A stretch of DNA of 56,173 bases from Cyanobacteriota bacterium (GTDB lineage: Bacteria; Cyanobacteriota; Cyanobacteriia; PCC-6307; Cyanobiaceae). Positions 3,037-19,154 of the stretch are shown in pieces. The position numbers were made by a program, and so were the translations under genes. Where the stretch lies: NCBI GenBank assembly GCA_046052125.1, contig JBJOMY010000008.1, positions 1 to 56,173 on the forward strand, written 5' to 3'. The stretch's first letter is position 1, and each line of letters begins with the position of its first letter. The notes beneath the pieces are model-generated. The model ran no database searches. It was given only the letters and a program-made list of their open reading frames with translations, and was not told where the DNA came from.

Positions 3037-3246
3037 TCAGGCCTTTTCCAGTTCGCTCTCGGCGAAGTTGTTGGTGTTGATGCCGCCTTCGGAGCCGCTT
3101 ACGCCGTTGTAATTGACCTTCTCGAAGCGCACCACCACGGGGTAGCGGATGCCGGAGGTGTCGATCGAGGCGACGGTGCCGACTTCGTTGAACCAGTAGG
3201 ACTCAGGACGCTTGATGCGCACCTTGTCGCCGCGGGAGATGGCCAT
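3037..3246 (-). CDS. psaE: Photosystem I subunit IV
   Basis: [43 protein letters not shown], 69 aa from ATG 3246. Confidence 0.97.
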
Positions 3247-3357
3247 CGCTGCGCAGGGAAAGGGGTGGCTGTCAGACGGAATGTACCCGCGTCGGGCGGG
3301 TCTTCTCACCGGCCGTCACGAAACGTGGCACCATCGACCCTTCCTGAGCGCATCCCA

Positions 3358-4401
3358 ATGGCCGAGGCCCCGTCTTTCAGCCTCGATCTGCCGGATCCCG
3401 AGAGCGACAGCATCAGCTCGATGGAGTTCCTGGCCCGTATCGAGGAGGCCTGGGCCATCTGTGACCGCTTCGACCTGCAGACCGAGATCTGGCGGGGTCG
3501 CATCCTGCGGGCGGTGCGGGATCGGGAGCGCCGAGGCGGCGAGGGCCGTGGGGCCGGCTTCCTGCAGTGGCTCAGAGAGCAGGAGATCAGCAAGACCCGG
3601 GCCTACGCCCTGATCCAGTTGGCGGAATCGGCGGATCAGATGCTCGGTGAGGGGGTGCTGGAGGAAACCAGCGTGAACAACTTCTCCAAGCGTGCCTTCA
3701 TGGAAACGGCCCAGGCCGACCCTGAGGTGCAGCTGATGATCGGTGAGGCTGCCAACGACGGCCAGCAGATCACCCGCAAGCAGGTGCGGCAGCTCACCGA
3801 CGAGTTCACCGCCGCCACCAGCCCCTTGCTGCCCGAGGAAATTCGCCAGCGCACTGCCGAAAACTTGCTCCCCCCGAGAGCTGTGGCGCCGCTAGTGAAG
3901 GAGCTCGCCAAGCTCCCGGATGCGCAGCAGGAAGACCTGCGGAAGGTGTTGCGCGATGAACCGGAACTCGATCGGGTGAAGGATGTGACCAGTACCGCCC
4001 GCTGGCTGAGCAAGGCGGCCGAAGCCGGGCTTGCGGTGCGTGCTTTTCAACAGGGCGAACTCGATCTGGACAAAGCGATGCAGGAGGCGCTGCGCCTCGA
4101 TGCCCTCGGTCTGCTGGCCGATGCGGTGGGTCAGGCTCAGGCCTTGGAATCCGCCGTGCTCAAGCTCCACACCAGTTGGCGCCGGCTCAATGGCCTGCAG
4201 GAGCGGTTGTGGGTGGAGAGCGGCAGCAGCACCCCCCACCTGCGGGAGTTGCTCACAGCGCTGCAGAGCCTGAGCGGCAACACCATGCGCGTGTCGCTCG
4301 GGGAGCTGGCCGGCGGCAAACGGGTGCGGCTCCAGCTGGTGGAGGAGGCGCCGGATCAACTGGAGGCACCGGCGATTCCGGTGATGGCCCAGCCCGGTTG
4401 A
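3358..4401 (+). CDS. Conserved cyanobacterial hypothetical protein (helical, possible DNA-binding N-terminus)
   Basis: Long ORF with coding-like composition from ATG 3358, ends 10 bp before recQ. Confidence 0.75.
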   Translation: MAEAPSFSLDLPDPESDSISSMEFLARIEEAWAICDRFDLQTEIWRGRILRAVRDRERRGGEGRGAGFLQWLREQEISKTRAYALIQLAESADQMLGEGVLEETSVNNFSKRAFMETAQADPEVQLMIGEAANDGQQITRKQVRQLTDEFTAATSPLLPEEIRQRTAENLLPPRAVAPLVKELAKLPDAQQEDLRKVLRDEPELDRVKDVTSTARWLSKAAEAGLAVRAFQQGELDLDKAMQEALRLDALGLLADAVGQAQALESAVLKLHTSWRRLNGLQERLWVESGSSTPHLRELLTALQSLSGNTMRVSLGELAGGKRVRLQLVEEAPDQLEAPAIPVMAQPG

Positions 4402-4411
4402 GGCGGGTGTG

Positions 4412-5896
4412 ATGGCGGATCCGCTGGCGCAGGCCCTCGAACAGCATTTCGGCTGGAGCAGCTTCCGGCCTGGCCAGCGGCCGGTGGTGGAGGCGATGCT
4501 CTCGGGCCGCGACTGCCTGGCGGTCTTGCCCACTGGTGCGGGCAAATCGCTCTGTTATCAGCTCCCGGCCCTGGTGCGCGGCGGTCTGGTGATCGTGATC
4601 TCACCGCTGGTGGCCCTGATGCAGGACCAGGTGCTGCACCTGCAGCGGCGGGGCATCCCTGCGGCCTGCCTGCATCGCGGTCTGGATCCCGCCCGGCGGC
4701 GCGATCTGATCGAGCGGGTGCGCAGCAATCGCTTGCGGCTGATCTATCTGGCGCCAGAGCGGCTGCAGGTGGAGGCCACGCGGCAGTTGCTGGAAGACAT
4801 CAACGACCAGGGCCAGCTGGTGGGTGTGGCCATTGACGAAGCCCACTGCATCAGTGCCTGGGGCCACGACTTCCGCCCTGATTACCGGCGCCTGGGGCAG
4901 CTGCGGCGGCTCTGCCCGGGGGTGCCCCTGGTGGCCCTCAGCGCCACTGCGGCTCCGCGGGTGCGGGCCGATCTGATCCGGTTGCTGGAGCTGCGGCGGC
5001 CGTTGATTCAGGTGCGCTCTGCCCGGCGCGACAACCTCTCCTATGCGATGCGCCGGCGTCCGGCCGACCCGATGCCCGAGGTGCTGGAGGCGCTGGCGGC
5101 AGCTCGAGGCGCCAAGTTGATTTATGCCCGCACCCGCCGCTCGGTGGAGAGCTGGGCGAAGCGGCTCAGTGATGCGGGCGTGGAGGCCATTGCGTATCAC
5201 GCCGGGATGGATCCGGAGAGCCGCAGCCTCGCCCTCGCGCACTTCCAGGAGCATGCGGCTCCCGTGCTCGTGGCCACGGTGGCCTTTGGGATGGGGGTGG
5301 ATCGGCCGGATGTGGGCTTGGTGCTCCACCTGGATCTGCCCGCCAGCGCCGAGGGCTATCTGCAGGAATCGGGCCGCGCCGGGCGCGATGGTTTGCCCGC
5401 CCGCTGCTTGGTGCTCTTCGACCCAGACGATCGCACCAGCCTGGCCTGGGCTATCCGCGCTTCCGCTGAAGACGGGGCCGATGCTCAGGAGAAGCAGCGG
5501 GTGGAGCTGGCCCAGCAGCAGCTGCGGCGGATGGAAGCGGTGGCCGAGGGCGGCGCTTGCCGGGAGCAGGCCTTGCTGCTGACCGTGGGTGAGTTGGTGC
5601 CGCCTTGCGGCCGCTGCGATCGCTGCACTGAGCAGCCGTCGCTAAGGGATTGGTCGGAGCAGGCGGCCGAGGTGCTGGCGGTCTTGGAGCAGCGCGGCGG
5701 TGTGGATCTGCGCAGCCTTGGCGAGGATCTGGCTAAGGCCGAAGGCGAGGAGGTGGAGCGCTGGCGCTGGCTGGCCCGCCGCCTGGTTCAGGAGAATCTC
5801 ATCGCTGAAAGCGACGACGGCAGCCAGAGGCTTTGGTTGCGCCCAGCGGGTCGCCGCTTCCTGCAGCAACCCTGGACGCTGCGCCTGGCGGCCTGA
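4412..5896 (+). CDS. recQ: RecQ-family ATP-dependent DNA helicase
   Basis: PTGAGKSLCYQLP, DEAHCIS.WGHDFRP, ATVAFGMG, QESGRAGRDG, Zn-binding CR..CGRCDRC. Confidence 0.93.
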   Translation: MADPLAQALEQHFGWSSFRPGQRPVVEAMLSGRDCLAVLPTGAGKSLCYQLPALVRGGLVIVISPLVALMQDQVLHLQRRGIPAACLHRGLDPARRRDLIERVRSNRLRLIYLAPERLQVEATRQLLEDINDQGQLVGVAIDEAHCISAWGHDFRPDYRRLGQLRRLCPGVPLVALSATAAPRVRADLIRLLELRRPLIQVRSARRDNLSYAMRRRPADPMPEVLEALAAARGAKLIYARTRRSVESWAKRLSDAGVEAIAYHAGMDPESRSLALAHFQEHAAPVLVATVAFGMGVDRPDVGLVLHLDLPASAEGYLQESGRAGRDGLPARCLVLFDPDDRTSLAWAIRASAEDGADAQEKQRVELAQQQLRRMEAVAEGGACREQALLLTVGELVPPCGRCDRCTEQPSLRDWSEQAAEVLAVLEQRGGVDLRSLGEDLAKAEGEEVERWRWLARRLVQENLIAESDDGSQRLWLRPAGRRFLQQPWTLRLAA

Positions 5897-7273
5897 TCAG
5901 CCGCCCTTGGCGGTGCAGAGATCGTTGATCAGCTTGTGCTCAAAGTCGCTCTGGGGTGCATCCCAGGTTTTCCAGGTGCCCGATTGCCCGGTGGCATTGA
6001 GGCGCTTGGCGCCGCAGTTGATGGCTAGATACAGCGGCTGCCCATCGCTGTTGAGGCTGGGGGCCACATAGCTGCCGCCCATGGGCTGCCAGTTGGCCCA
6101 ATCCACCTGCAGGGGGCCGTAGTTGCGCCAATCGGGCGATGAAGGCTTGCCGGGCTTGGCTGCGGCGGTGGTTGCAGCGGGCTTGGTCGTTGCCACCGGT
6201 TTGGCGGCCACTGGCTGCGCAGCGGGTTTAGGCTCGGGCTTGGGTTCTGCTTTGGGTTGCGGCTGTGGCTGCGCCGCCACCACGGGCTTCGGTTCGGGTT
6301 TCGGTTCCGGCTTCACTGCCGCGGTGACGGCCGGCTGAACAGCGGGCTGTGCTGCGGGTTTCGACGTGGGCTGGGCAGCCACAGGTTGGGCTTGGGGGGC
6401 TGGCTTGGCCGCTGGTTGCGGGGCCGGCTTGGCGGCAGGTTTGGCCGCCGGTTTCGCAGCAACGGTTTGCGGCTTGGCAGCGGGTTTCGCCGCAGGCTTG
6501 GCGGCTGGCTTGGGGGTACCGCGCAGCTTGAGGGTGCGGCCCACTTCCACCTGGTTGGGATCGCTGATGTTGTTGATGGCGATCAGTGACTGGGTGGAGA
6601 TGCCGTAGCGCTGGGCGATCACCGAGAGGCTTTCGCCGCTCTGCACCTTGTGCTGGGTGGCGGTTTTGTTCACCGCTGGCTTCGCGGCTGCGGTGGTGCG
6701 GGTCACGGGCACCTTGATGCGGCTGCCGGCCCAGAGATCCTGGGTGCTGCGCAGGTTGTTGAGCTCCATCAGGCGCTGCACCGAGGTGCCATAGCGATCG
6801 GCCAGCTCCGAGAGAGTTTCACCGGGCTTCACGGTGTAGTTGGCCTGCACTGTGGTGGTGCCGCTGGCGCTGCTCGCCGAGCCGCCGCCAGCGCTGGGCA
6901 CCTGAATGCGGCTACCGGCCCAGAGGTCTTGGGGGCTGCGCAGGCCGTTGAGCTGCATCAGGCGCTGCACCGAGGTGCCGTAGCGATCGGCGATCTCGGA
7001 GAGGGTTTCGCCTGGTTTCACGGTGTAGTTGCCGCGTCCGCCACCACCGCCGCTGGCACTTCCGCCGCCGCCAGGCACCTGGATCCGGCTGCCGGCCCAG
7101 AGATCCTGGGGACTGCGCAGGTTGTTGAGCTGCATCAGCCGTTGCACCGAGGTGCCGTAGCGCTCGGCGATTTCGGAGAGGGTTTCTCCGGGCTTCACCA
7201 CCACCTCGCCGGCTAGGCCAGGCAGCGGCAGCAGCAGGGCCAGGGCAAGGACTGCAGCGGAGCGGCGGCGCAT
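5897..7273 (-). CDS. Secreted LysM-repeat peptidoglycan-binding protein
   Basis: Signal peptide from ATG 7273, four LysM domains (three VKPGETLSE.A.RYG, one VQSGESLS), P/A/K-rich linker, C-terminal Cys-containing domain. Confidence 0.9.
   Translation of the reverse strand: MRRRSAAVLALALLLPLPGLAGEVVVKPGETLSEIAERYGTSVQRLMQLNNLRSPQDLWAGSRIQVPGGGGSASGGGGGRGNYTVKPGETLSEIADRYGTSVQRLMQLNGLRSPQDLWAGSRIQVPSAGGGSASSASGTTTVQANYTVKPGETLSELADRYGTSVQRLMELNNLRSTQDLWAGSRIKVPVTRTTAAAKPAVNKTATQHKVQSGESLSVIAQRYGISTQSLIAINNISDPNQVEVGRTLKLRGTPKPAAKPAAKPAAKPQTVAAKPAAKPAAKPAPQPAAKPAPQAQPVAAQPTSKPAAQPAVQPAVTAAVKPEPKPEPKPVVAAQPQPQPKAEPKPEPKPAAQPVAAKPVATTKPAATTAAAKPGKPSSPDWRNYGPLQVDWANWQPMGGSYVAPSLNSDGQPLYLAINCGAKRLNATGQSGTWKTWDAPQSDFEHKLINDLCTAKGG
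6708..7203 (-). repeat. Three near-identical LysM-coding repeats (about 130 bp each)
   Basis: VKPGETLSE(I/L)A(E/D)RYGTSVQRLM.LN.LRS.QDLWAGSRI.VP repeated three times with G/S-rich spacers. Confidence 0.85.
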
Positions 7274-7382
7274 GGGGCGTGGGCGTTCGGCTGCAGGCAC
7301 CATACGGGCATCGGCCGGGGACGCCAGTGTCTCTTCGATAAGCCCTGGCAATGATTGAAGGCCGCTGCAGCAGCCCGATCGA

Positions 7383-8759
7383 TCAGCCCAGTAGGCGCCG
7401 GATCAGCGGCAATTTGCCCGCATAGGGCGGATAGCGGAAGGGGAGATCGAGGCTGAACGGTCGCCGCAGCACGCTGCGCTCGTGGGAGAAGGTGCGGAAG
7501 CCTGCTTCGCCGTGGTAGCTGCCCATGCCGCTGCTGCCCACACCGCCGAAGGGCAGCTCCGGCACGCCCACGTGCATCACCACATCGTTGAAACACACCC
7601 CACCCGAACTGGTGCGCTCCAGGATCTGCTCCTGGGCGCTGCGATGTTTAGAGAACAAATAGAGAGCCAGTGGTTTGGGGCGCTGGTTGATCCGTTCAAT
7701 CGCCTCGTTGAGCCCGCTCACCCGCAGCACCGGAAGCAGTGGGCCGAACAACTCCTCCTGCATCAGGGGATCATCCAGGCTTTCCACTCGGATCAGGGTG
7801 GGGGCGATGCGGCGGCGCTCCGGATCGCTCTGCCCGCCCCAGAGCAGCTGGCCGCGGCTGCGGGCTCCCTCGAGCAGTTGGTTGAGGCGCTGGAACTGGG
7901 CTCCATTCACCACGCTGCCCAGATCGGCCGACTGCAGCGGGTCGTCGCCAAAGCAGGCCTGGATGCGCTCGCTCAGCCGCTGCACCAGGGCGGGCTCGAT
8001 CGCCTCCTCCACCAGCAGGTAATCCGGGGCGATGCAGGTTTGCCCTGCATTGAGGGCCTTGCCCCACACCAGGCGGCGAGCGCTCACCTCCAGATCGGCA
8101 TCGCCAAGCACCACCGCTGGGCTCTTGCCCCCCAGCTCGAGGGTCACCGGCGTGAGGTGGCGTGCGGCCGCTTCCATCACGAGCCGGCCGACGCGCTCCC
8201 CACCGGTGAAAAAGATGTGGTCGAACTGCTCCTGCAGCAAGGCCTGGGCGACGGCTCCATCGCCCTCCACCACCTGCACCGTGGTGGGTGGGAAGGCGGA
8301 GCCGATCAGCTTGGCGATCAGGGCGCTGGTGGCCGGTGCGTGTTCCGAGGGTTTGAGCACGGCGGTGTTGCCCGCGGCCAGGGCGCTCACCAGGGGCTGG
8401 ATGGTGAGCGAGAACGGGTAATTCCAAGGCCCGATCACGAGCACGCAGCCCAGTGGTTCGCGGATCACCTGGGCCTGGCCGGGCAGCAGGCTCGCTGGCA
8501 CCGCCACCTTGCGGGGGGCCATCCAGCGGCGCAGCTGCTTGCGCACCAGCTGAATTTCCTGCTGTACCGCCACCAGCTCGAAGTAAGCCTCCACCGGCGG
8601 CTTGCCCAGATCGGCGCCGAGAGCGTCCAACACGGCATCGCGGTGCTCGTTCACCGCTTGCTCCAGCCGCTGCAACTGCTCCAGCCGCCAGGCGAGCGAG
8701 CGGGTTTCAGCCGCGGTAACGGCCTGCCGCATGGCGGCGATCGGGGTGGACAGCTGCAT
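7383..8759 (-). CDS. Aldehyde dehydrogenase (ALDH3-like)
   Basis: IGPWNYP, LKPSE, FTGG, LELGGKSP, catalytic GQTC, EELFGP, PFGGVG.SG. Confidence 0.92.
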   Translation of the reverse strand: MQLSTPIAAMRQAVTAAETRSLAWRLEQLQRLEQAVNEHRDAVLDALGADLGKPPVEAYFELVAVQQEIQLVRKQLRRWMAPRKVAVPASLLPGQAQVIREPLGCVLVIGPWNYPFSLTIQPLVSALAAGNTAVLKPSEHAPATSALIAKLIGSAFPPTTVQVVEGDGAVAQALLQEQFDHIFFTGGERVGRLVMEAAARHLTPVTLELGGKSPAVVLGDADLEVSARRLVWGKALNAGQTCIAPDYLLVEEAIEPALVQRLSERIQACFGDDPLQSADLGSVVNGAQFQRLNQLLEGARSRGQLLWGGQSDPERRRIAPTLIRVESLDDPLMQEELFGPLLPVLRVSGLNEAIERINQRPKPLALYLFSKHRSAQEQILERTSSGGVCFNDVVMHVGVPELPFGGVGSSGMGSYHGEAGFRTFSHERSVLRRPFSLDLPFRYPPYAGKLPLIRRLLG

Positions 8760-9416: not shown

Positions 9417-11519
9417 TCAATCCCCAGTGGTGGGTAGGTCTGGCTGGGTCAAGGCCGGAAAGCGCAGGCGAAGCAATGCCCCTCCCCGTTCGCTCACGCC
9501 GCACTCGAGCGTGCCCTGGTGGTTCTCCATGGTGGTGCGCACCACAAAAAGGCCAAGGCCGCTGCCGCTGGCCTTGGTGGTGAGCAGGGGCGTTTCATCG
9601 AGGGCTTCTTGGGGAAGTCCGGGGCCGTTGTCCTCCACCGATAACAACCAGTGGTTGGCCTCGCGCCTGAGGCTGACGCCGATCCACGGATCAGTGGGGC
9701 CCTGCTCGGCCAGGGCTTCGGCGGCATTACGCAGCAGGTTCACGATCGCGATCTGAATCTGCACGGCATCGCCTTCGATCCAGGCGGGCTCGCGCAGGCG
9801 ATCGAGCTCGCTGCTCTCCACCAGCATCCGGCTCACCGGGCCGGTGCTGCGGGCATAGAGCAGAGCGCTCTGGGCCACATCGCGCAGATCGAGGCGCTGA
9901 TGCTCGGTTTGCACGTTGCGCAGCAGCGCGCGCATCTTTTCGATCGTGAGCACCACGCGATCGGTTTCGGTGCGGATGCTCTGCAGCTGGTCGCGCCATG
10001 CCTCAGGGAGGGGAGGGCCGCCATCGCGTTGGCTGCGCTCCAGCAAGAGCTGGCTGTTGAGCAGCAGCACGCTCAGCGGTTGGTTGATTTCATGGGCGAT
10101 GGCAGCGGCCTGAAGGCTGCTGCGCAGCTTGTCTTTGAGCAGGCTGAGGGTCTGGGCGTCGCGGAAGCGCTCGCGCTCCTGGGCCTCCTGCACGTTGGCG
10201 GTGAGGCGGTTGTAGCGCTCCACCAGCTCGGCGATGGCGCCATCGAGGGCGAGCAGCTCCTCGCCGGCTGTCGTGGTGAGCCCACTGCTGAAGTGCAGGT
10301 CGCCGCTGGCGGTCCCGTTGGTAGCGGTGAGGCTTCTTCCCAGTTGACGGGAGGCGGATTCCAGCTGCCTGAGCGGCTCGAGCAGGGCGCGGATCTGGCG
10401 GTTGATCAGCAGCACTGCTCCGGTGAGGGCGGCCGCGGCGGCGAGCAGTGCGAGCAGGCTGGTGCGCTCTGCGGCGGCGCTGCTGGGATTTGTGGCCAGG
10501 GCTGTGAGCAGGATCCAGTTGAGCCCTTCCTCCTGGCCCCAGGGGTTGGCCTGAAGCGTGTAGGTGTTGCCGTTCACACTCACCCGCCGTGGGCTGCGGG
10601 CTTCACCCCAGGCGTTGGCTTGATGTTGCAAGCCGCCCTTGACCCCAGAAACAAACAACGTGTGGCTGAGGGCCTGAGCGAGGGGATGGTTGAGGCTGCG
10701 CAAGTTGGCGCGCCGCACCACGCCCTTGTTGCGTTGCAGGGTGAGATCCGCCTTGGAGCAGGCCACCAGATCGCCGCTGGGCTCAACGATCACGGCCAGC
10801 CCTTGGCGCTCTTGCCACACGCCCTGGAGCCAGCTGCTCAGTTGGCTGAGCACCATGTCCACCCCCACCACGCCAAGCAGGCGGCGATTGGGGCCGAACA
10901 CCGGCGCGTTGTAGGAGATCGAGAACACCTCGGGCTGGTCTTCCCAGGGGTAGATCGAGCTCCAGGTGGCTTTGCCGGCTTGGGCCGTTTCCACATACCA
11001 GGCTTCCTCGTGGGTGCTGGTCATCCCAGGAATGCGTTCGAGCAGCTTGCCCCGCTCTCCCGTGGGGCTCATGGCGTAGATGGCCATCGAGCCCCTGCCG
11101 CTGCGCGGGGTGTCTTCGTTGAGCAGCAGTTCACCCTCGGCGGTGCGCTCCATGCCCACAAAGGCGCCATCGCTGCTGCCGAAGTTGATGTAGTCCACCG
11201 GGAACACCTGCATCTGGTTCCAGAACCGCTCGCTCAGGGCACTCACGTCACGCTCACGGCCCGGCACTCGACGCAGCCAGTGGAGATTGAGTTCGTTGAT
11301 CCAGATCGGGTAGCTGAGCTTGTTGGAGAGGCGAATCGAGAGATCCACCACTGAGGCGTTCTGGCGATAGGCCTCACCGAGCTCGAGGCCGCTGCGGCGC
11401 CCGAGGCTGTAGCTGAGCAGGCTGAAGCCCCCCGTTACCAAAATCAGCTGCAGCGCACTCACCAGGGCCAGCCGATTAGCGAGCCGTTTGGGTAGCCGGA
11501 GGCTCAGGGTGCGGCGCAT
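9417..11519 (-). CDS. Membrane sensor histidine kinase with Cache-type periplasmic domain
   Basis: Two TM segments, EAWY..WSSIY..VVGVD Cache-like motifs, H-box AHEINQPL, N-box NLLRNA, DNGPG, GSGLGL. Confidence 0.9.
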   Translation of the reverse strand: MRRTLSLRLPKRLANRLALVSALQLILVTGGFSLLSYSLGRRSGLELGEAYRQNASVVDLSIRLSNKLSYPIWINELNLHWLRRVPGRERDVSALSERFWNQMQVFPVDYINFGSSDGAFVGMERTAEGELLLNEDTPRSGRGSMAIYAMSPTGERGKLLERIPGMTSTHEEAWYVETAQAGKATWSSIYPWEDQPEVFSISYNAPVFGPNRRLLGVVGVDMVLSQLSSWLQGVWQERQGLAVIVEPSGDLVACSKADLTLQRNKGVVRRANLRSLNHPLAQALSHTLFVSGVKGGLQHQANAWGEARSPRRVSVNGNTYTLQANPWGQEEGLNWILLTALATNPSSAAAERTSLLALLAAAAALTGAVLLINRQIRALLEPLRQLESASRQLGRSLTATNGTASGDLHFSSGLTTTAGEELLALDGAIAELVERYNRLTANVQEAQERERFRDAQTLSLLKDKLRSSLQAAAIAHEINQPLSVLLLNSQLLLERSQRDGGPPLPEAWRDQLQSIRTETDRVVLTIEKMRALLRNVQTEHQRLDLRDVAQSALLYARSTGPVSRMLVESSELDRLREPAWIEGDAVQIQIAIVNLLRNAAEALAEQGPTDPWIGVSLRREANHWLLSVEDNGPGLPQEALDETPLLTTKASGSGLGLFVVRTTMENHQGTLECGVSERGGALLRLRFPALTQPDLPTTGD

Positions 11520-11522
11520 CAA

Positions 11523-12131
11523 TCAGGGCTCGTCCTGGTGGAGATTGCCGAGCAGGGAGGCATGGCGCACCAGTTCAGCCCCACTCATGCCCAGCTTCTG
11601 GGCGATGGCCTTGCGGTGGGTTTCCACGGTGGCGATGGAGAGGCTGGCGCTCCGGGCGATCTCCTTGTTGCTGAGCCCTTGGCCGATCAGGTTGAAGATC
11701 TCTCGCTGCCGTGGGGTGAGCGGCTCGCCAGCGGAGGGCAGGCAGCGCTCGAGCACGCTGTGCAGCTGAGCGAAAGCGGCCGTTTTATCCACCACACCCA
11801 CGATCCAAGGCTGGAGGGCTGCCGGGCAGACAAAGCTGCTGGCCTGGCCAGAGAGCACCACCACCTTGGCGTTGGGGTTCGTTTCGGCCAGGGCCTCAGC
11901 CACCACCAGGCCGTCGCCATCCGGTAGCGCCAGATCCAGGATCAGCAGATCCGGAGGCTGATCGCCGTTGCAGAGCACCAAGGCCTCGGCCTTGGTGGTG
12001 GCGACGGCGCGAACCTCCAGACCGGGCAGCGCTTCGAGCATCGAGCGCAGCAGCTGCAGGAACATCACCTGGTCTTCCACGATCAGGCATTGCAGGGCTC
12101 GCGGATGACTGGCGGGCAGTGGCGCAGGCAT
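11523..12131 (-). CDS. NarL/LuxR-family response regulator
   Basis: REC LIVED..DLLILDLALPDGDG..K; HTH LTPRQREIF.LIGQGLSNKEIA..TVETHR. Confidence 0.92.
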   Translation of the reverse strand: MPAPLPASHPRALQCLIVEDQVMFLQLLRSMLEALPGLEVRAVATTKAEALVLCNGDQPPDLLILDLALPDGDGLVVAEALAETNPNAKVVVLSGQASSFVCPAALQPWIVGVVDKTAAFAQLHSVLERCLPSAGEPLTPRQREIFNLIGQGLSNKEIARSASLSIATVETHRKAIAQKLGMSGAELVRHASLLGNLHQDEP

Positions 12132-12927: not shown

Positions 12928-13559
12928 CAGCGCTGTTGGAGAACCCCACGGCCCGGGTGAAGTGGCTCGCGGCGCCGAGCAGTGCCAGTTGGCTCGAGCA
13001 AGCCAATGCCCGGCCCGATCTGGTGTTGATCGATCACGCCCACTGCGAGCGCAAAGCGGCTGGTGTGGCTCTGCAGCTGATGTTCCGCTACCCCTCCGAT
13101 GAAGGGCTTGCGGCGCTAGTGAGCCCATTGGCGCGGGAAGAGCTCGAGCATTTCGAGCTGGTGTTGCAGCTGCTGCAGCGGCGGGGCATTCCTCTGCGGC
13201 CCCTGCCGGCTCCTGGCTATGGCGCCACCCTCACGGCTGCGGTGCGCAAGGGCGAGCGCGAGCGCAGGCTGGATTCGTTTCTGGTGGCTGGCTTGATCGA
13301 AGCCCGCAGCCATGAACGGATGGCTCTGCTGGCGGCCCATAGCCCTGATCAAGAGCTCCGCGCTCTTTACGGCGAACTGCTGGCAAGTGAGGCGCGTCAC
13401 TTTGGGCTGTATTGGTGCCTGTGTGAAGAGCGTTTCGGGCGCGAAGCCACGGTGGAGCGCTTGGAGGCGTTGGCGGCGGTCGAGGTGCAGGCGCTCACGG
13501 GTGAATTGGCCCAAGCGGATGGTGTGCGCATGCACTCGGTGGGTGTGGTGCTGCCCTGA
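12924..13559 (+). CDS. miaE: tRNA ms2io6A37 hydroxylase
   Basis: [28 protein letters not shown] di-iron motifs. Confidence 0.93.
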
Positions 13560-13580: not shown

Positions 13581-14114
13581 TCACTCCACCGTCACGTTCA
13601 CGCCACGATTCGGGGGTGGTGGGAGTGAAAGTTCCCGCATGCTCAGTGGCCCATACAGGCTGAGGAGAGCCTGTTTGTATTGGGATTCGCTGATCACTTC
13701 CTCATCCACAAGCTGGCGCAGATTCTCCATGCGGGTGCGGATCATCGCGTCTTTCAGGAGCGGCTGGCAGCTGAAGGTACTGTTGCTACGGGCCAATGGA
13801 ATGTTCAGGCTGAGCATGGCCAGTAATGAGCTCTGATTGCCGATCGTGGCGTTGCCATTCGATTGAGCCACGCTGATGCTGTTGCCCCATTGATCGGGAT
13901 AGGCACCGGCGGAGAGGCTGAGGTTGGGTAGGGCGCCGGCATCGGCGTTGCAACGCACGTTGCCGAGATCAATCGAGACCCGAGATCCCTGGGGGAATTG
14001 CTGGTTGGGGGACAGATAGATCTGGCCTATGGCTGCCTGCGGGCTGAGGCAGAAACAGAGCGCCAACGTGAGCAGATCCTTGCGTGAACAAGGCCCTGCA
14101 GCGAGGTTCCGCAT
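13581..14114 (-). CDS. Secreted hypothetical protein with amphipathic beta-hairpin and SHOCT-like C-terminal helices
   Basis: Signal-like N-terminus; strands LSLSAGAY and LAMLSLNIPL flanked by Cys55/Cys116; LRQLVDEEVISESQY; start uncertain (88-bp overlap with upstream gene). Confidence 0.7.
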   Translation of the reverse strand: MRNLAAGPCSRKDLLTLALCFCLSPQAAIGQIYLSPNQQFPQGSRVSIDLGNVRCNADAGALPNLSLSAGAYPDQWGNSISVAQSNGNATIGNQSSLLAMLSLNIPLARSNSTFSCQPLLKDAMIRTRMENLRQLVDEEVISESQYKQALLSLYGPLSMRELSLPPPPNRGVNVTVE

Positions 14115-14449
14115 ACATAAAACGATGGTTGATCTTGCGCCACGCTGTAAGCAATCACGCGGCTGGCCCCTGGACCGAGACGGAACACGGAAGGCCGAAG
14201 CCGGATCAAGGCCTCGGCTTCGGCTGGGGGCAGGGGTGTGAGCTCAGCGGTGCTGCGCCCCTGCACCTGCCGCACCCGAAACACCTGCAGTTCCACCCGT
14301 TGCAGGCGATCGCTGGTGTTGCTCACCTGGAGCACGCCCCGGCGTTGCTCCAGCAGAAGGGGCGAGAGTCCCAGGGCCTGGGCATGGCTGGCTGTCAGCA
14401 GCGCCACGGCCCCGAGGCAGCCCGCCAGCGCTTTAGCGGTTTGCATCAT
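14027..14449 (-). CDS. Single-domain PapD-like pilus chaperone
   Basis: Signal peptide (AQA), then LSP..LQVSNTSD..RVELQV..RPSVFRLGPGASRVI, matching the PapD N-domain pattern. Confidence 0.7.
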   Translation of the reverse strand: MMQTAKALAGCLGAVALLTASHAQALGLSPLLLEQRRGVLQVSNTSDRLQRVELQVFRVRQVQGRSTAELTPLPPAEAEALIRLRPSVFRLGPGASRVIAYSVAQDQPSFYVCGTSLQGLVHARICSRWRSVSASARRQP

Positions 14450-14957
14450 CGGTGCAGGTCACCGTGGCAACGGCGTTGTAGGTGCCATTGGCGAACTTGT
14501 TGCCGTTGCTAGTGGTGCTGAAACGCACGTGCAGATTGGTGCTCGGCAGATTGCCATCGCTGCCGAGATTCAAGCTCTGGGCGGCGCTGCTGTAGGAGCC
14601 ATTGCCGAGCTTCACTTCACTCGTGGTGGCAGCTGTCCCGCCTGACAATTTGGGTGGATCCACGATCACCGTGCCAGCTGAAGTGAGGTTGCTCACCACG
14701 GCAATGGTGCCTGGTGTCTGCGTGCCACTGAATGTGCCCGAGAGACTGGAATCGGAGGTGATCAGGCCCCGCTTCTTCTCCACCGCCAGCGATCCGCCAG
14801 TTGTGGTGATATCGCAGAAATTGCTCACCACCGTGGGGCTGAAATCCACGGTTTGGCTAGCGCCGATGGTGGCGGCGATGCTCGTGGTGGGCAGGAGCGC
14901 AATGCTCAGCAGCGCGGCATGGCCGATGCGCTGGCGAGGTGTGATCGAGGAAGGCAC
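14433..14957 (-). CDS. Secreted fimbrial/pilin-like beta protein
   Basis: Signal peptide, N-terminal VDFSPTVV..C, S/T/G-rich body, C-terminal GTYNAVATVT strand typical of chaperone-usher pilins. Confidence 0.7.
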   Translation of the reverse strand: MPSSITPRQRIGHAALLSIALLPTTSIAATIGASQTVDFSPTVVSNFCDITTTGGSLAVEKKRGLITSDSSLSGTFSGTQTPGTIAVVSNLTSAGTVIVDPPKLSGGTAATTSEVKLGNGSYSSAAQSLNLGSDGNLPSTNLHVRFSTTSNGNKFANGTYNAVATVTCTDDANR

Positions 14958-15067
14958 GCCAATGGATCAGAGACAGGCCGAGTGTTGTCAGCTCGGCGCA
15001 ATCCGTTGGCCGGATCACCGGATCTGCTGAGGGCTTGAGCAGCTGTTCAGCGTCCGTGCAGCGTTTT

Positions 15068-15616
15068 TCAGTCCAGCAGCGGGAATTGTTCGGCGATGGC
15101 ATCGCCCGTGAACTGGGCCACCCAGCCCTCGGGGTTATCGAAGAAGCGAATGGCGCAGAACTGGGGTGCGCTGCCCATGTCGAACCAATGCTTGGTGCCG
15201 GCGGGAACGCTGATCCAGTCGTCGGCCTCACAGAGCACCTGCAGCACCTCCTCGCCGATGTGCAGGCAGAACAACCCTTTCCCTTCCACGAAGAAGCGCA
15301 CTTCGTCTTCGCCGTGGGTGTGCTCGGCCAGGAATTTGCGGCGCAAGGCGTCCCGATCGGGGTGATCGGGTGCCATCCGGATCGCATCCACGGTGGGGTA
15401 GCGGCCGCTGTCTTGCACCCGGGCAATCTCGGGGGCGTAGGCCGCCAGCACCTGCTCGGGCCCTGCTCCCACCGGCAGCTCAGCCCGGGCTGGCCAGCGC
15501 TCGAAGCCGATGCCCCGTTGCGCCAATTCGCTGGCGATCAGGGCGGGATCGTTGCTGGCGAACTGGGGCAGGGGTTGGCGGCTGGGCGAGGCCGCAAAGA
15601 TCTGCAGATGACTCAT
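15068..15616 (-). CDS. mtnD: Acireductone dioxygenase
   Basis: KFLAEHTH.EDEVRFFV.G.GLF, VPAGTKHWF, IRFF. Confidence 0.94.
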   Translation of the reverse strand: MSHLQIFAASPSRQPLPQFASNDPALIASELAQRGIGFERWPARAELPVGAGPEQVLAAYAPEIARVQDSGRYPTVDAIRMAPDHPDRDALRRKFLAEHTHGEDEVRFFVEGKGLFCLHIGEEVLQVLCEADDWISVPAGTKHWFDMGSAPQFCAIRFFDNPEGWVAQFTGDAIAEQFPLLD

Positions 15617-16441: not shown

Positions 16442-17200
16442 GTGACGGCAATCGATTGGTTTTCCCTGCTCCATCCGGTGCTGGTGATCCTTTTTGTGTA
16501 CCCGGTGGTGGGGGCCACGATTCGGCTGGGAATTCTGGTGCGCGAGAAGCGCCTCGGCATCACCCAGCAGCCGGCGCTGGTGCCGCGCGAACACTCCGAT
16601 CACGGGCGCTGGTTCACCGCCTCTGTGGTGGTGGCCGTGTTGATCGCCCTCGTGTACTCCTTCATCAGCCGGGCGGTGGAGCCCGGCGCAGCCTTCGCCG
16701 GAGGCCTGCCGCGCCTGAGCTCCTTGATGTTGGTGGCGGCCGGCACGCTCGTGGCCTTGTTGGCGCTGCTCAAGGTGAAGCAGCCATCGCTGCGCGCCAG
16801 CTTCACTTTGCTCACCTGGGCGGGGCTGTTGGGGCTGGGCTCCCAGCCTGAGATCTGGCGCCTCTCAGATAACCCCTTCAGCGCCTCCTTCTGGAGCTCC
16901 CACTACTGGAGTGGGGTGCTGCTCACCGGCCTGTTGCTGTTCAACCTGGCGGCGCGGCCGGAGATCACCCGCCACCTGCGTTGGCGTCGCCTGCACGTGG
17001 CCTCCAATCTGCTGATCATGGTGTTGTTGGCGGTGCAGGCCATCACCGGCAGCCGTGATCTCTTGGAGATTCCGCTCAGCTGGCAGAAGCCGGCGATCTA
17101 CCGCTGTGATTTCCAGAACCGCACCTGTCCGGAGCCGGCGGCGGCTCCAGCTGCTGCGGCACCAGGCTCAGGCGCGGCCGTTGCCCCCAGCCTGGGCTGA
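16442..17200 (+). CDS. DUF4079-like membrane protein
   Basis: LLHP..YPVVG, conserved His residues in TM helices, QAITGSRDLLEIPLSWQKP. Confidence 0.75.
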   Translation: MTAIDWFSLLHPVLVILFVYPVVGATIRLGILVREKRLGITQQPALVPREHSDHGRWFTASVVVAVLIALVYSFISRAVEPGAAFAGGLPRLSSLMLVAAGTLVALLALLKVKQPSLRASFTLLTWAGLLGLGSQPEIWRLSDNPFSASFWSSHYWSGVLLTGLLLFNLAARPEITRHLRWRRLHVASNLLIMVLLAVQAITGSRDLLEIPLSWQKPAIYRCDFQNRTCPEPAAAPAAAAPGSGAAVAPSLG

Positions 17201-19154
17201 TCAGCCGCCGTAGCAGCGCTCTGAACGCGCGCCACTCCGGTGGCGCCAAGCGCTCGGGCCAGGCGCCCGGGCGGCCATAGAGCCAGCCCTGGAAGCGCTC
17301 CTTGGCAGCAGAGCCTTCGGCGGGCCAGGCCCAGCGCAGCAATTGGTTCTCGTCCAGCTGGGGTTGCAGGGCCAGCGGCGGCAGATCTGCGTTGGGCGCC
17401 CGCAGCTGCAGCTGCTCCAACCAGTGGCCAGCCGGCAGTGCAACTGGATTCTCCAGGGCTGCTCCGCCTTCGCTCAGGGCGCAAACCTGAACCGGCCACT
17501 CGATGGGCAAGCCGGCTGGATCGCGGGCCATCAACGTGGCCGGTAAGCGAATCGCCAGCCAGGGGGTGGGATCGCCGGCGGCCGGATCTCGGCAAGCCCG
17601 AAGCGCCACCAGGAGTCCGAGGAGCGTGAGTGCACCCCACAGCAGTCCGAGCCAGCCACCGGCACTGCCGCCCTGGCTGAGGTTGCCAAGGATCCAGATC
17701 AGATTGAGGCCATTGAGCACCAGCAACACCACCAGAGGTGCCGCCAACACCGGTGCGATCGCAGCGCTGCTGCGCATGCGGTGCTTGGGGGTGATCCGAA
17801 ACGGTTGCACCTTTCCCCACAGGCTCGCCAGCACCGTGGCCGCCAGGGGCACCGCCAGGGCCCAGCCGGGCAGATCCGCCAGGAGGGCATGGCGGCTGCC
17901 GCGGTTGAGCCAGCCCACGCTGAGCAACAGGGCGATCCACAGGGGCAGCAGCAGTTCGATCACGGCTTGGCCCGTGAGCCTCACGGGCATCACATCCAGC
18001 CAGCCGATGCAGAGCGGCATCAGCAACAGGAGTAGCCGCGGCACGGTGTTGAACCAGTGCAGCGCGCCTTCCAGATAGGCCAGGCGCTGGCCCCAGCTCA
18101 GCCCTTTCAGCCGTAGCGGCCCTTGGCGGAGGCGGAGCGCTTGCAGGGTGCCCGAGGCCCAGCGCTGCCGCTGCCGCACGAAATCGAGCATGGTTTCGGC
18201 CGCGAGGCCGGCGCTCAGCTTTTCCCCCAGATAGCGCAGCTTCCAGCCGCGCGAAGTGAGCACCATGCCCGTCACCAGGTCTTCCGAGATCGCCTGCTCC
18301 ACAAAGCCGCCCACCTCCTCCAGAGCGCTGCGGCGCACCAGGAAGCTGGTGCCGGCGCACACCACCGCCTCCCAGCTGCTGCGCACCGGTTCGATCCAGC
18401 GGTAAAAGCTCTCCTCATCGGGTAGCAGCCAGGCCTCCATCGCCAGGTTGCGCATCACTGGATCGGCATTAAGAAAGTGCTGCGGGGTTTGCACCAGCGC
18501 CACCTGCGGATCGAGCAGCAGGCCGATCGTGCGCTCGAGAAAGTGCCGCTGGGGCACGAAATCCGCATCGAACACCGCCACCAGCTCGCCATCGCTCAGG
18601 GCCAGGCCGGCGTTGAGGTTGCCGGCCTTGGCGTGCTGGCGCTCGGGGCGGTGGTGGTAGCGGTAGCCGTAGCGGGCGGCGAGAGCGGCCACTTCAGGGC
18701 GGCCGGCGTCATCGAGCACCCAGAGGCGCCGCCGGGAGTAGCTCAGCTGGTCGCAGGCCAGCAGGCAGCGCTCGAGCACAGGGAGTGGTTCACCGCAGGT
18801 GGGGATCAGCACATCCACCCAGGGCTGCCAATCACTGGCCAGCCAGCGCCTCTGGGCGGCATCGGCCTCGGCTCGGCCATCGCTGAAGCGCCGCCAGGCC
18901 AGGAGCAGGGGCAGCAAACCGGTGAGGAGAAGCCACCCCTCAGCGAGCAGCAACACCACGCTCAAGCTCGCAGCCAGGGGTGTGGCGAGGTTGAGGCTGA
19001 AGGCCACCCGCCAGTGCAGGTAGCGCAGGGCGAGCAGCGCCAAAAGCAGCAGCAGGCTGCGGCGCATCCACAGCGGGCACTGGGCTTCGGGGCGCTGGCT
19101 GAGCCACAGGGGCCAGAGCAGGACCAGCCAGGGGAGCCACAGCTCCGCGTTCAT
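17076..19154 (-). CDS. Cellulose synthase-like GT2 processive glycosyltransferase
   Basis: DVLIPT.GE, LDD, HAKAGNLN, FDADF, QTPQHF, SED, QRQRW, FRITPK, multiple TMs. Confidence 0.88.
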   Translation of the reverse strand: MNAELWLPWLVLLWPLWLSQRPEAQCPLWMRRSLLLLLALLALRYLHWRVAFSLNLATPLAASLSVVLLLAEGWLLLTGLLPLLLAWRRFSDGRAEADAAQRRWLASDWQPWVDVLIPTCGEPLPVLERCLLACDQLSYSRRRLWVLDDAGRPEVAALAARYGYRYHHRPERQHAKAGNLNAGLALSDGELVAVFDADFVPQRHFLERTIGLLLDPQVALVQTPQHFLNADPVMRNLAMEAWLLPDEESFYRWIEPVRSSWEAVVCAGTSFLVRRSALEEVGGFVEQAISEDLVTGMVLTSRGWKLRYLGEKLSAGLAAETMLDFVRQRQRWASGTLQALRLRQGPLRLKGLSWGQRLAYLEGALHWFNTVPRLLLLLMPLCIGWLDVMPVRLTGQAVIELLLPLWIALLLSVGWLNRGSRHALLADLPGWALAVPLAATVLASLWGKVQPFRITPKHRMRSSAAIAPVLAAPLVVLLVLNGLNLIWILGNLSQGGSAGGWLGLLWGALTLLGLLVALRACRDPAAGDPTPWLAIRLPATLMARDPAGLPIEWPVQVCALSEGGAALENPVALPAGHWLEQLQLRAPNADLPPLALQPQLDENQLLRWAWPAEGSAAKERFQGWLYGRPGAWPERLAPPEWRAFRALLRRLISPGWGQRPRLSLVPQQLEPPPAPDRCGSGNHSGRSPASAS

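Follow-up and report, generated by a model that had tools for sequence, protein, structure and literature searches.

We analyzed a stretch of 56,173 nucleotides (hereafter the window) from the genome of a freshwater picocyanobacterium of the family Cyanobiaceae (contig JBJOMY010000008.1), in which three small genes, here called A, B, and C, lie together between miaE and mtnD (Table 1). The original prediction, made from the letters of this DNA, had described the triad as a minimal pilus-like module comprising a pilin (A), a half-chaperone (B), and a small third protein (C) that takes the place of an usher, and had raised the potential that similar triads occur in Vibrio and marine phages. In our analysis, the folds of A and B, the co-conservation of the three genes, and the lack of an usher bear out the pilus-like part of this proposal, whereas the usher role of C and the mobile Vibrio or phage origin do not find support. 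We favor the reading that picocyanobacteria carry the triad as an accessory, self-contained cassette encoding a minimal chaperone-assisted donor-strand system, to which we assign a probability of roughly 0.55. Support for its A-B core is good and entirely computational, as the folds of A and B, the model of their interface, the conserved gene linkage, and the lack of an usher match are all computed results.

The three open reading frames (ORFs) are co-oriented and overlap one another, by 17 nucleotides (nt) between A and B and by 88 nt between B and C. At its start, each has a basic and then hydrophobic segment that, judged by eye, resembles a signal sequence, as had been predicted. Family matches agree with the expected flanking genes (MiaE, E 7e-60; ARD/MtnD, E 8e-27; and a CobI-like TP_methylase, E 2e-40). 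Every mature protein contains exactly two cysteines (C48 and C168 in A, C113 and C126 in B, and C55 and C116 in C), and none of the six varies in the family alignments, where mean column identity is 55% for A, 59% for B, and 54% for C. The lower guanine-plus-cytosine (GC) content that had been noticed by eye is genuine yet modest: the triad has 61.6% GC compared to 66.7% for the window, which places it among the lowest 3.3% of 1377-bp windows, and GC at third codon positions is 0.71 to 0.75 in the triad genes versus 0.75 to 0.83 in the flanking genes.

Protein A contains both of the motifs originally quoted for it, VDFSPTVV..C48 and GTYNAVATVTC168, and its layout consists of the signal-like N terminus, an N-terminal extension of about 15 residues, and an immunoglobulin (Ig)-like sandwich. 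The residues F39, C48, N157, G158, T159, Y160, and C168 are invariant (family alignment A2). In the AlphaFold2 monomer model, which has a mean predicted local distance difference test (pLDDT) score of 75, the beta-sandwich starts at residue 48, and residues 33 to 44 are disordered (pLDDT <50). The best Foldseek match of this model is CfaB, the major pilin of CFA/I (E 1.2e-4, probability 1.00, TM-score 0.46 to 0.52), followed by CS17, CooA, FimA, and CsuA/B; the pilins of CFA/I, CS17, and CS1 span E values from 1.2e-4 to 1.9e-2. We found no match between A and any fimbrial, SCPU, or WxL-type Pfam family, and a match to SdeA in the profile search of PDB sequences was dismissed as spurious. Taken together, the models are suggestive of an Ig sandwich of pilin-like type whose N-terminal extension is disordered.

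The AlphaFold2 model of B (pLDDT 79) has one Ig domain, not the two of a full chaperone, and Foldseek returned 118 matches for it at E<=1e-3, led by SfaE, CupB2, PapD, FaeE, Caf1M, and CsuC. A second structure search, with VIA, placed the CFA/I chaperone CfaA first (Z 11.6, root-mean-square deviation 3.9 over 113 residues); below it came other chaperones at Z 9 to 10.5, together with MSP/ASH domains and a WxLIP structure at Z 9.4. On the strength of these models, B is a PapD-like N-domain, and this fold is all that it has in common with two-domain chaperones. Since the best match of A is CfaB and that of B is CfaA, the two together point to one fimbria, CFA/I, with its pilin and its chaperone. 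Four residues of B (C113, R124, C126, and S127) are invariant and R128 is nearly so (alignment A1), and the protein ends in a short polar tail. Pfam showed no match of B to PF06030, and DARPins that surfaced in the profile search of PDB sequences were set aside as spurious. Across all three proteins, Pfam and NCBIfam gave only sub-threshold noise (Big_13 at 0.033, BcsO at 0.1, PTS, and a glycosyltransferase).

We modeled mature A (residues 33 to 174) together with mature B (residues 26 to 140) in three runs, alongside three controls. The pair reached an interface score (ipSAE) of 0.71 (0.73, 0.71, and 0.68 in the individual runs), compared to 0.07 for the best control; the mark that it passed is also passed by 116 of 157 solved complexes and by 2 of 215 mismatched pairs. 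The runs share at least 94% of their contacts, and the partner's pLDDT is 83 or higher. In the model, residues 117 to 128 of B are sandwiched between the last strand of A (residues 162 to 172) and its first strand (residues 45 to 57), running parallel to the former (at 163 to 167) and antiparallel to the latter (at 48 to 50). The residue pairs with the least error are A165-B122 and A167-B124, and residue numbers climb together along the last strand of A, which indicates parallel pairing; the first strand of B (residues 26 to 32) also touches A. The predicted interface thus has the geometry of donor-strand complementation, where the G1 strand of the chaperone lies parallel to the F strand of the subunit. 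In PapD, the C terminus of the subunit is anchored by two conserved basic residues of the chaperone cleft, Arg8 and Lys112. R124 and R128 of B fall within the modeled interface.

Conservation of the gene order provides a separate line of evidence. Homologs of each gene are known (44 clusters for A, 37 for B, and 69 for C at 90% identity), and the named ones come from metagenome-assembled genomes of picocyanobacteria. A scan for loci with C, which used one genome per species, returned 23 loci; B adjoins C in 22 and A adjoins B in 20, the exceptions being two contigs that break off within B and a locus, L023, with a C-terminal fragment of C only. The order A-B-C on one strand was kept in all 20 loci with enough upstream DNA. 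Given these homologs and this constant order, A, B, and C are more than chance ORFs. Two Aphanothece loci are arranged A'-B'-A-B-C, such that each pilin has its own B and there is a single C, and one genome has two pilin-like genes with one B and one C. We observed no fourth conserved gene beside the triad, and the flanks vary by lineage. The C fragment of L023 (4896-5237; profile positions 120-181, E 3e-21) has neither A nor B upstream and appears to be decayed, and genome G534 shows a similar partial match.

The triad is patchily distributed. Among 401 sampled genomes of the window's family, the C profile matched 22, from 8 of 64 genera and 19 of them at E<1e-30; within its own genus, the triad is present in 7 of 30 genomes, counting that of the window. 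In a sample drawn from the whole phylum, an extended C profile matched 4 of 30 genomes of the family and 0 of 371 genomes of other cyanobacterial families, and the B profile matched 2 of 401, namely, the window's genome and, marginally, G218. The cassette was found only in the picocyanobacterial family, as an islet that is polymorphic for insertion or deletion: in four of five triad-less genomes that we examined from the same genus, miaE and mtnD abut at a distance of about 12 bp. The fifth (locus L041, G282:C1, 2215-3087) carries at this junction a different gene of 290 amino acids (aa) that is LysR-like by eye, and the junction looks like a recurrent insertion spot. A metatranscriptome contig (run X1) that joins position 13548 to position 15173 without the triad agrees with the presence, in the same water, of cells that lack the triad, although it is weak evidence, as its shorter side has just 25 nt.

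What defines chaperone-usher pili is the combination of a two-domain chaperone with a large usher. The original prediction had reported no usher within the window, and this absence extends to the genome as a whole (2.64 Mb, 99.96% complete): in Pfam searches at E<=1, under which E. coli and control genomes did match, we found 0 matches to the usher family PF00577, to PapD_N (PF00345, which does not match B either), or to SCPU (PF05229). When used as queries, an 877-aa usher-like protein from a divergent cyanobacterial cluster and a 307-aa protein from marine-type clusters, both described below, also had no match in this genome. Its sole weak CooC_C match was considered as a trace of an usher and rejected, as the protein is CapA-like. 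There is one secretin in the genome (PF00263, E 1.3e-30), CsgG (PF03783) was not found, and profile searches revealed no second copy of either A or C. The original prediction had named three outcomes that would speak against it, namely, that A and B would not model as Ig-like pilin and chaperone folds, that the three genes would not be co-conserved, or that a canonical usher would co-occur elsewhere, and none of these was observed.

Protein C has no Pfam, NCBIfam, or PDB-sequence profile match; ribosomal protein L19e, which appeared in the last of these searches, was discarded as spurious. Its sequence pattern suggests a conserved mature N terminus, three amphipathic strand-like segments around an invariant AGAYPDQ turn, a charged helical segment, and a proline-rich tail. 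C55 and C116 are placed such that one end of this putative meander could be bridged. The half toward the C terminus, being charged, helical, and SHOCT-like, appears unlike a membrane barrel; 9 of 28 family members match PF09851 (SHOCT) weakly at E<=10, with a best E value of 0.0083 and none reaching the 27-bit cut-off. Relatives of C fall into 89 representative clusters at E<=1e-3 among 1.84 billion proteins, and of 10 that were looked up, one had Synechococcaceae names, two had marine Tara members, and seven were unnamed. Of the three profiles, that of C alone still picks up the divergent clusters, which those of A and B miss. Since distant forms of C occur with other cargo, and since some genomes have one C for two pilin-chaperone pairs, C resembles a shared envelope module, not a fiber subunit; it may be a pore, an anchor, or an adaptor. 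That C replaces the usher was conjecture on the part of the original prediction, and our searches lend it no support, given that C matches no family or solved-structure sequence and that its distant relatives have a Cys-rich protein and a DsbA-like gene as neighbors. The C family is an uncharacterized envelope protein family of interest in itself.

Table 1. Coordinates of the triad, of its predicted segments, and of one divergent cluster (L031, numbered on its own contig)
Feature	Coordinates	Strand	Description
Gene A	14433-14957	minus	ORF, GTG start, 174 aa; pilin-like subunit
A residues 33-47	14817-14861	minus	candidate donor strand; alternating hydrophobics, then C48 (putative role)
A residues 158-168	14454-14486	minus	C-terminal strand G-T-Y...C168; from alignment and from pairing with the last strand of B in the complex model
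Gene B	14027-14449	minus	ORF, 140 aa (~115 mature); single-domain PapD-like chaperone
B residues 117-128	14066-14101	minus	last (G1-like) strand, predicted donor strand; interface 117-126 and 128 in the complex model
Gene C	13581-14114	minus	ORF, 177 aa; secreted protein without known family
C residues 62-107	13794-13931	minus	two amphipathic strand-like segments, invariant AGAYPDQ turn, variable loop; sequence pattern
C residues 117-155	13650-13766	minus	conserved helical SHOCT-like segment
Spacer, mtnD stop to A start	14958-15067	minus	110 bp
Cluster L031 (G218:C220)	3104-7753		two pilin-like genes (162 and 170 aa), 278-aa two-domain protein, 877-aa usher-like protein

The divergent clusters offer a view of where the triad may have come from. 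Locus L031 lies in a cyanobacterium of another family, and Pfam misses its chaperone-usher character: the 278-aa protein, which is located between the pilin-like genes and the usher-like gene, has a weak WxLIP_PGBD match (3e-4), and the 877-aa outer-membrane-type protein matches CarboxypepD_reg (7e-14) and, weakly, CooC_C (0.048). Aligned by hhalign to the N-domain of the 278-aa protein, the B profile scored a probability of 88.5% (E 2.7e-6, 87 columns). The probability was at most 0.3% for C against the usher-like protein or the two-domain chaperone, and for A against the L031 pilin. Because B aligns to the N-domain of a two-domain chaperone, the triad reads as a reduced relative of an L031-type system; it looks like an offshoot of divergent cyanobacterial chaperone-usher clusters from which the second chaperone domain and the usher are gone and to which C has been added.

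Other divergent clusters were detected through C. Pilin-sized and B-sized genes stand ahead of a C-like gene in the genomes G338 and G591 and in G362 and G382. The latter two carry marine-type islands with a GC content of 45 to 48% (L036, G362:C1, 1270-6092; L037, G382:C1, 12-4497). L036 has three pilin-sized genes (157, 168, and 184 aa), and two were seen in L037; in both islands these are followed by a two-Cys B-sized gene, the C-like gene (with E values of 1.6e-11 and 1.2e-8), an AraC-type regulator, and a protein of 302 to 307 aa that has no Pfam family and that, by eye, is possibly an outer-membrane barrel. A more distant branch of C is found in islets that have a divergently oriented Cys-rich repeat protein of 135 to 137 aa near the C relative (L046, 223-3419; L047, 2177-3876; L030, 3200-4341). 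L046 and L047 also have a LuxR-type regulator, and L046 has a DsbA-like thioredoxin (5e-29).

We also examined the surroundings of the triad for signs of its expression. A promoter scan found no sigma-70-like site in the mtnD-A spacer, and a terminator scan found no terminator-like site there, the sole one being on the opposite strand within gene C. Given that mtnD is co-directional with the triad, read-through transcription or an unrecognized promoter would be possible. By eye, the spacer contains an inverted repeat at 14977-14997, with 6-bp GC-rich arms and a loop of about 9 nt, on which the terminator scan was silent. Parts of A, B, and C appear in short metatranscriptome contigs with at least 92% likeness, which come from four freshwater or riverine runs of four studies; since RNA libraries may carry DNA, these contigs only hint at transcription of the triad. 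Near the triad, the window also encodes a histidine kinase with a Cache domain, accompanied by a response regulator of LuxR type, and a family-2 glycosyltransferase of 692 aa that matches cellulose synthase weakly (9417-12131 and 17076-19154). The lowest GC content of the window is at positions 1-800 (0.56 to 0.59 per 1377-bp window versus a mean of 0.668).

If the triad is indeed a donor-strand system, it might work as follows. A would be exported by Sec and fold into an Ig-like sandwich whose last strand is missing, and in the periplasm B would cap it by slotting its own last strand between the first and last strands of A. The free N-terminal extension of one A could then displace B from the next subunit, giving rise to a noncovalent fiber or oligomer that needs no usher. 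C would act downstream of these steps as a shared envelope component, either an anchor or a platform for export or assembly; we propose this shared role because the C profile alone detects the divergent clusters and because there is one C per two pairs in some genomes. In this scheme, we infer polymerization, surface exposure, and the role of C.

Several observations weigh against this scheme. The best VIA score for A is a Z of 5.7, which in this wide structure search is under the level that the tool treats as meaningful, and pilins and archaeal donor-strand filaments are level there with generic sandwiches; for this reason the fold assignment of A is suggestive and not decisive. The success of the A-B model may mirror its likeness to solved chaperone-subunit complexes instead of actual binding. 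Furthermore, the cell is diderm, such that a fiber would still require some passage through the outer membrane. Nothing physically links C to A or B, and the distant branch of C (L030, L046, and L047) is not accompanied by any pilin or chaperone gene. By hhalign, the proteins that take the places of A and B in the divergent clusters are not significantly similar to them (probabilities of 20%, 17%, 0.3%, and 2.7%). Finally, transcription of the triad is unproven, given that contigs from RNA libraries can be DNA.

With these points in mind, it is possible, although unlikely, that no fiber is formed at all. A could be a monomeric Ig-fold protein, periplasmic or secreted, that functions in binding or adhesion, with B as its permanent partner or folding chaperone and C as an unrelated, co-regulated envelope protein. 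Such an arrangement would agree with the generic fold match of A in VIA, with A-B being the only pairing modeled, with the genome yielding neither an usher nor another dedicated pore, and with the two loci in which each pilin has its own B, as expected of 1:1 partners. It would leave the N-terminal extension of A harder to explain, however, since this conserved segment with its alternating hydrophobics is disordered in the monomer and lies partly outside the A-B interface, as a donor strand would, and another locus has two pilin-like genes for one B. Alternatively, a fiber might form and cross the outer membrane through a channel encoded elsewhere, such as a PilQ-type secretin or an unrecognized porin, which would make C a periplasmic adaptor, terminator, or anchor rather than a pore. 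The single secretin of the genome fits this idea, as do the extra outer-membrane-like gene of the marine-type clusters and the unbarrel-like C-terminal half of C; yet the 307-aa query found nothing in the window's genome, the triad has no further conserved gene at its side, and no secretin is known that exports chaperone-usher-type pilins. We therefore regard a channel elsewhere as distinctly unlikely. Somewhat more doubtful still is the idea that C is itself a small oligomeric export platform in the outer membrane, which replaces the usher of about 800 aa, builds a donor-strand surface fiber or tube with A and B, and serves other cargo too, e.g., the Cys-rich proteins next to its distant relatives. 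The pore would then consist of amphipathic beta-strands contributed by many copies, with the SHOCT-like helices making up a collar in the periplasm. A structure of this kind could underlie the spinae of Cyanobium; one study, citing Jezberova & Komarkova 2007, describes these rigid spinae, which are tied to microcolony formation in this genus (PMC8955281).

Two further explanations concern the history of the triad, and both appear far less probable. A decaying, nonfunctional remnant of a full chaperone-usher operon, from which the usher and the second chaperone domain were lost, would account for the related two-domain chaperone and usher-like gene in another cyanobacterial family, for the patchiness of the triad within its own genus, and for the C-only fragments in L023 and G534. 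Across 8 genera, though, the three ORFs are intact and their cysteines and motifs invariant, true decay takes another form, i.e., the lone C fragment, and contigs from RNA libraries cover all three genes, which leads us to consider a remnant very improbable. As for a mobile fiber module common to Vibrio and marine phages, with C as a substitute for the usher, the reduced GC content of the triad and the insertion/deletion polymorphism at the miaE|mtnD junction might have suggested it. There is also one unverified lead: in the Atlas, one feature-space neighbor cluster of the C homolog P0119 (181 aa, 132 members) is labeled 90% viral on the basis of its 10 members of known phylum, which neither the phage nor the IMG/VR searches confirmed. 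Three scans of IMG/VR (with the C alignments A3 and A4 and with P0173) found no relative, tblastn searches of 50,697 GenBank phage records with A, B, C, and the marine C-like protein P0167 were empty, and neither plasmids (searched with C only) nor PHROGs (searched with 20 C-family members) gave a match. In addition, C-like genes were confined to the window's own family in the phylum sample, and inspection of the junction by eye showed neither mobility genes nor repeats. In the absence of a phage or plasmid match, and with Vibrio genomes not searched directly, the module postulated by the original prediction is unsupported, and we give it next to no credence.

We thus return to the minimal donor-strand cassette as our preferred reading. 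If it is correct, a diderm lineage with a one-domain chaperone, a pilin, and a small unrelated protein would demonstrate how far donor-strand assembly can be reduced, and it would raise the question of how such a fiber traverses the outer membrane. The hosts are abundant freshwater picocyanobacteria, whose aggregation, sinking, and resistance to grazing hinge on surface structures that are poorly known. Some strains carry the cassette and sister strains lack it cleanly, such that the latter represent natural knock-outs.

To place the triad among known systems, we compared it to those nearest in structure, sequence, and host. Our literature search, from whose coverage subscription journals largely fall outside, found no account of an usher-less triad with a pilin and a half-chaperone in picocyanobacteria. 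By structure, the nearest system is that of the CFA/I-type (class 5, alternative) fimbriae, made up of CfaA, CfaB, CfaC, and CfaE. A is closest in Foldseek to CfaB, CS17, and CooA, B is closest to CfaA, and the modeled pairing has the geometry of donor-strand complementation. However, the triad has neither an usher match nor a tip adhesin, B consists of a single Ig domain of about 115 mature residues instead of two domains, the fimbrial, PapD_N, and usher families of Pfam are not matched, and C has no counterpart in CFA/I. By sequence, and for B only, the nearest relative is the L031 cluster, which is likewise cyanobacterial and missed by Pfam and whose pilin-like genes also have the G-x-Y...C-terminal strand. 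In place of its two-domain chaperone and usher-like protein, the triad has C, and neither A nor C shows detectable similarity to L031 proteins.

Among cyanobacteria, two sources describe for Synechocystis a CccS with SCPU (PF05229), a CccP with PapD_N (PF00345), and Slr0019 as a PF00577 usher (PMC4390875; bioRxiv 10.1101/130278). This archaic, sigma-type system resembles the triad in being a cyanobacterial subunit-chaperone pair for which a role in surface structures is proposed; it differs in that SCPU, PapD_N, and Usher are all unmatched in the window's genome. The cyanobacterial CT pilus was considered and set aside, as it has a different fold and gene cluster (PMC12397347), and it is absent from the structural matches of A. 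A precedent for assembly without an usher comes from the Gram-positive Elr pilus, in which donor-strand exchange is reported to be guided by a chaperone whose fold matches CsuC, CfaA, and Caf1M (bioRxiv 10.64898/2026.10.17.759780). The Elr/WxL systems, which are confined to Bacillota, are described as having a membrane-anchored DUF916/DUF3324 chaperone, WxL-domain pilins, and sortase anchoring. Judging from the WxLIP structure among the VIA matches of B, the chaperone fold alone is common to both systems; B lacks PF06030, A lacks a WxL-type family, and Elr hosts have no outer membrane to cross. Judged by membership, with neither an usher nor a two-domain chaperone, the triad stands outside the chaperone-usher class, whereas by mechanism the A-B pair, as modeled, would work as a chaperone-subunit pair of that class.

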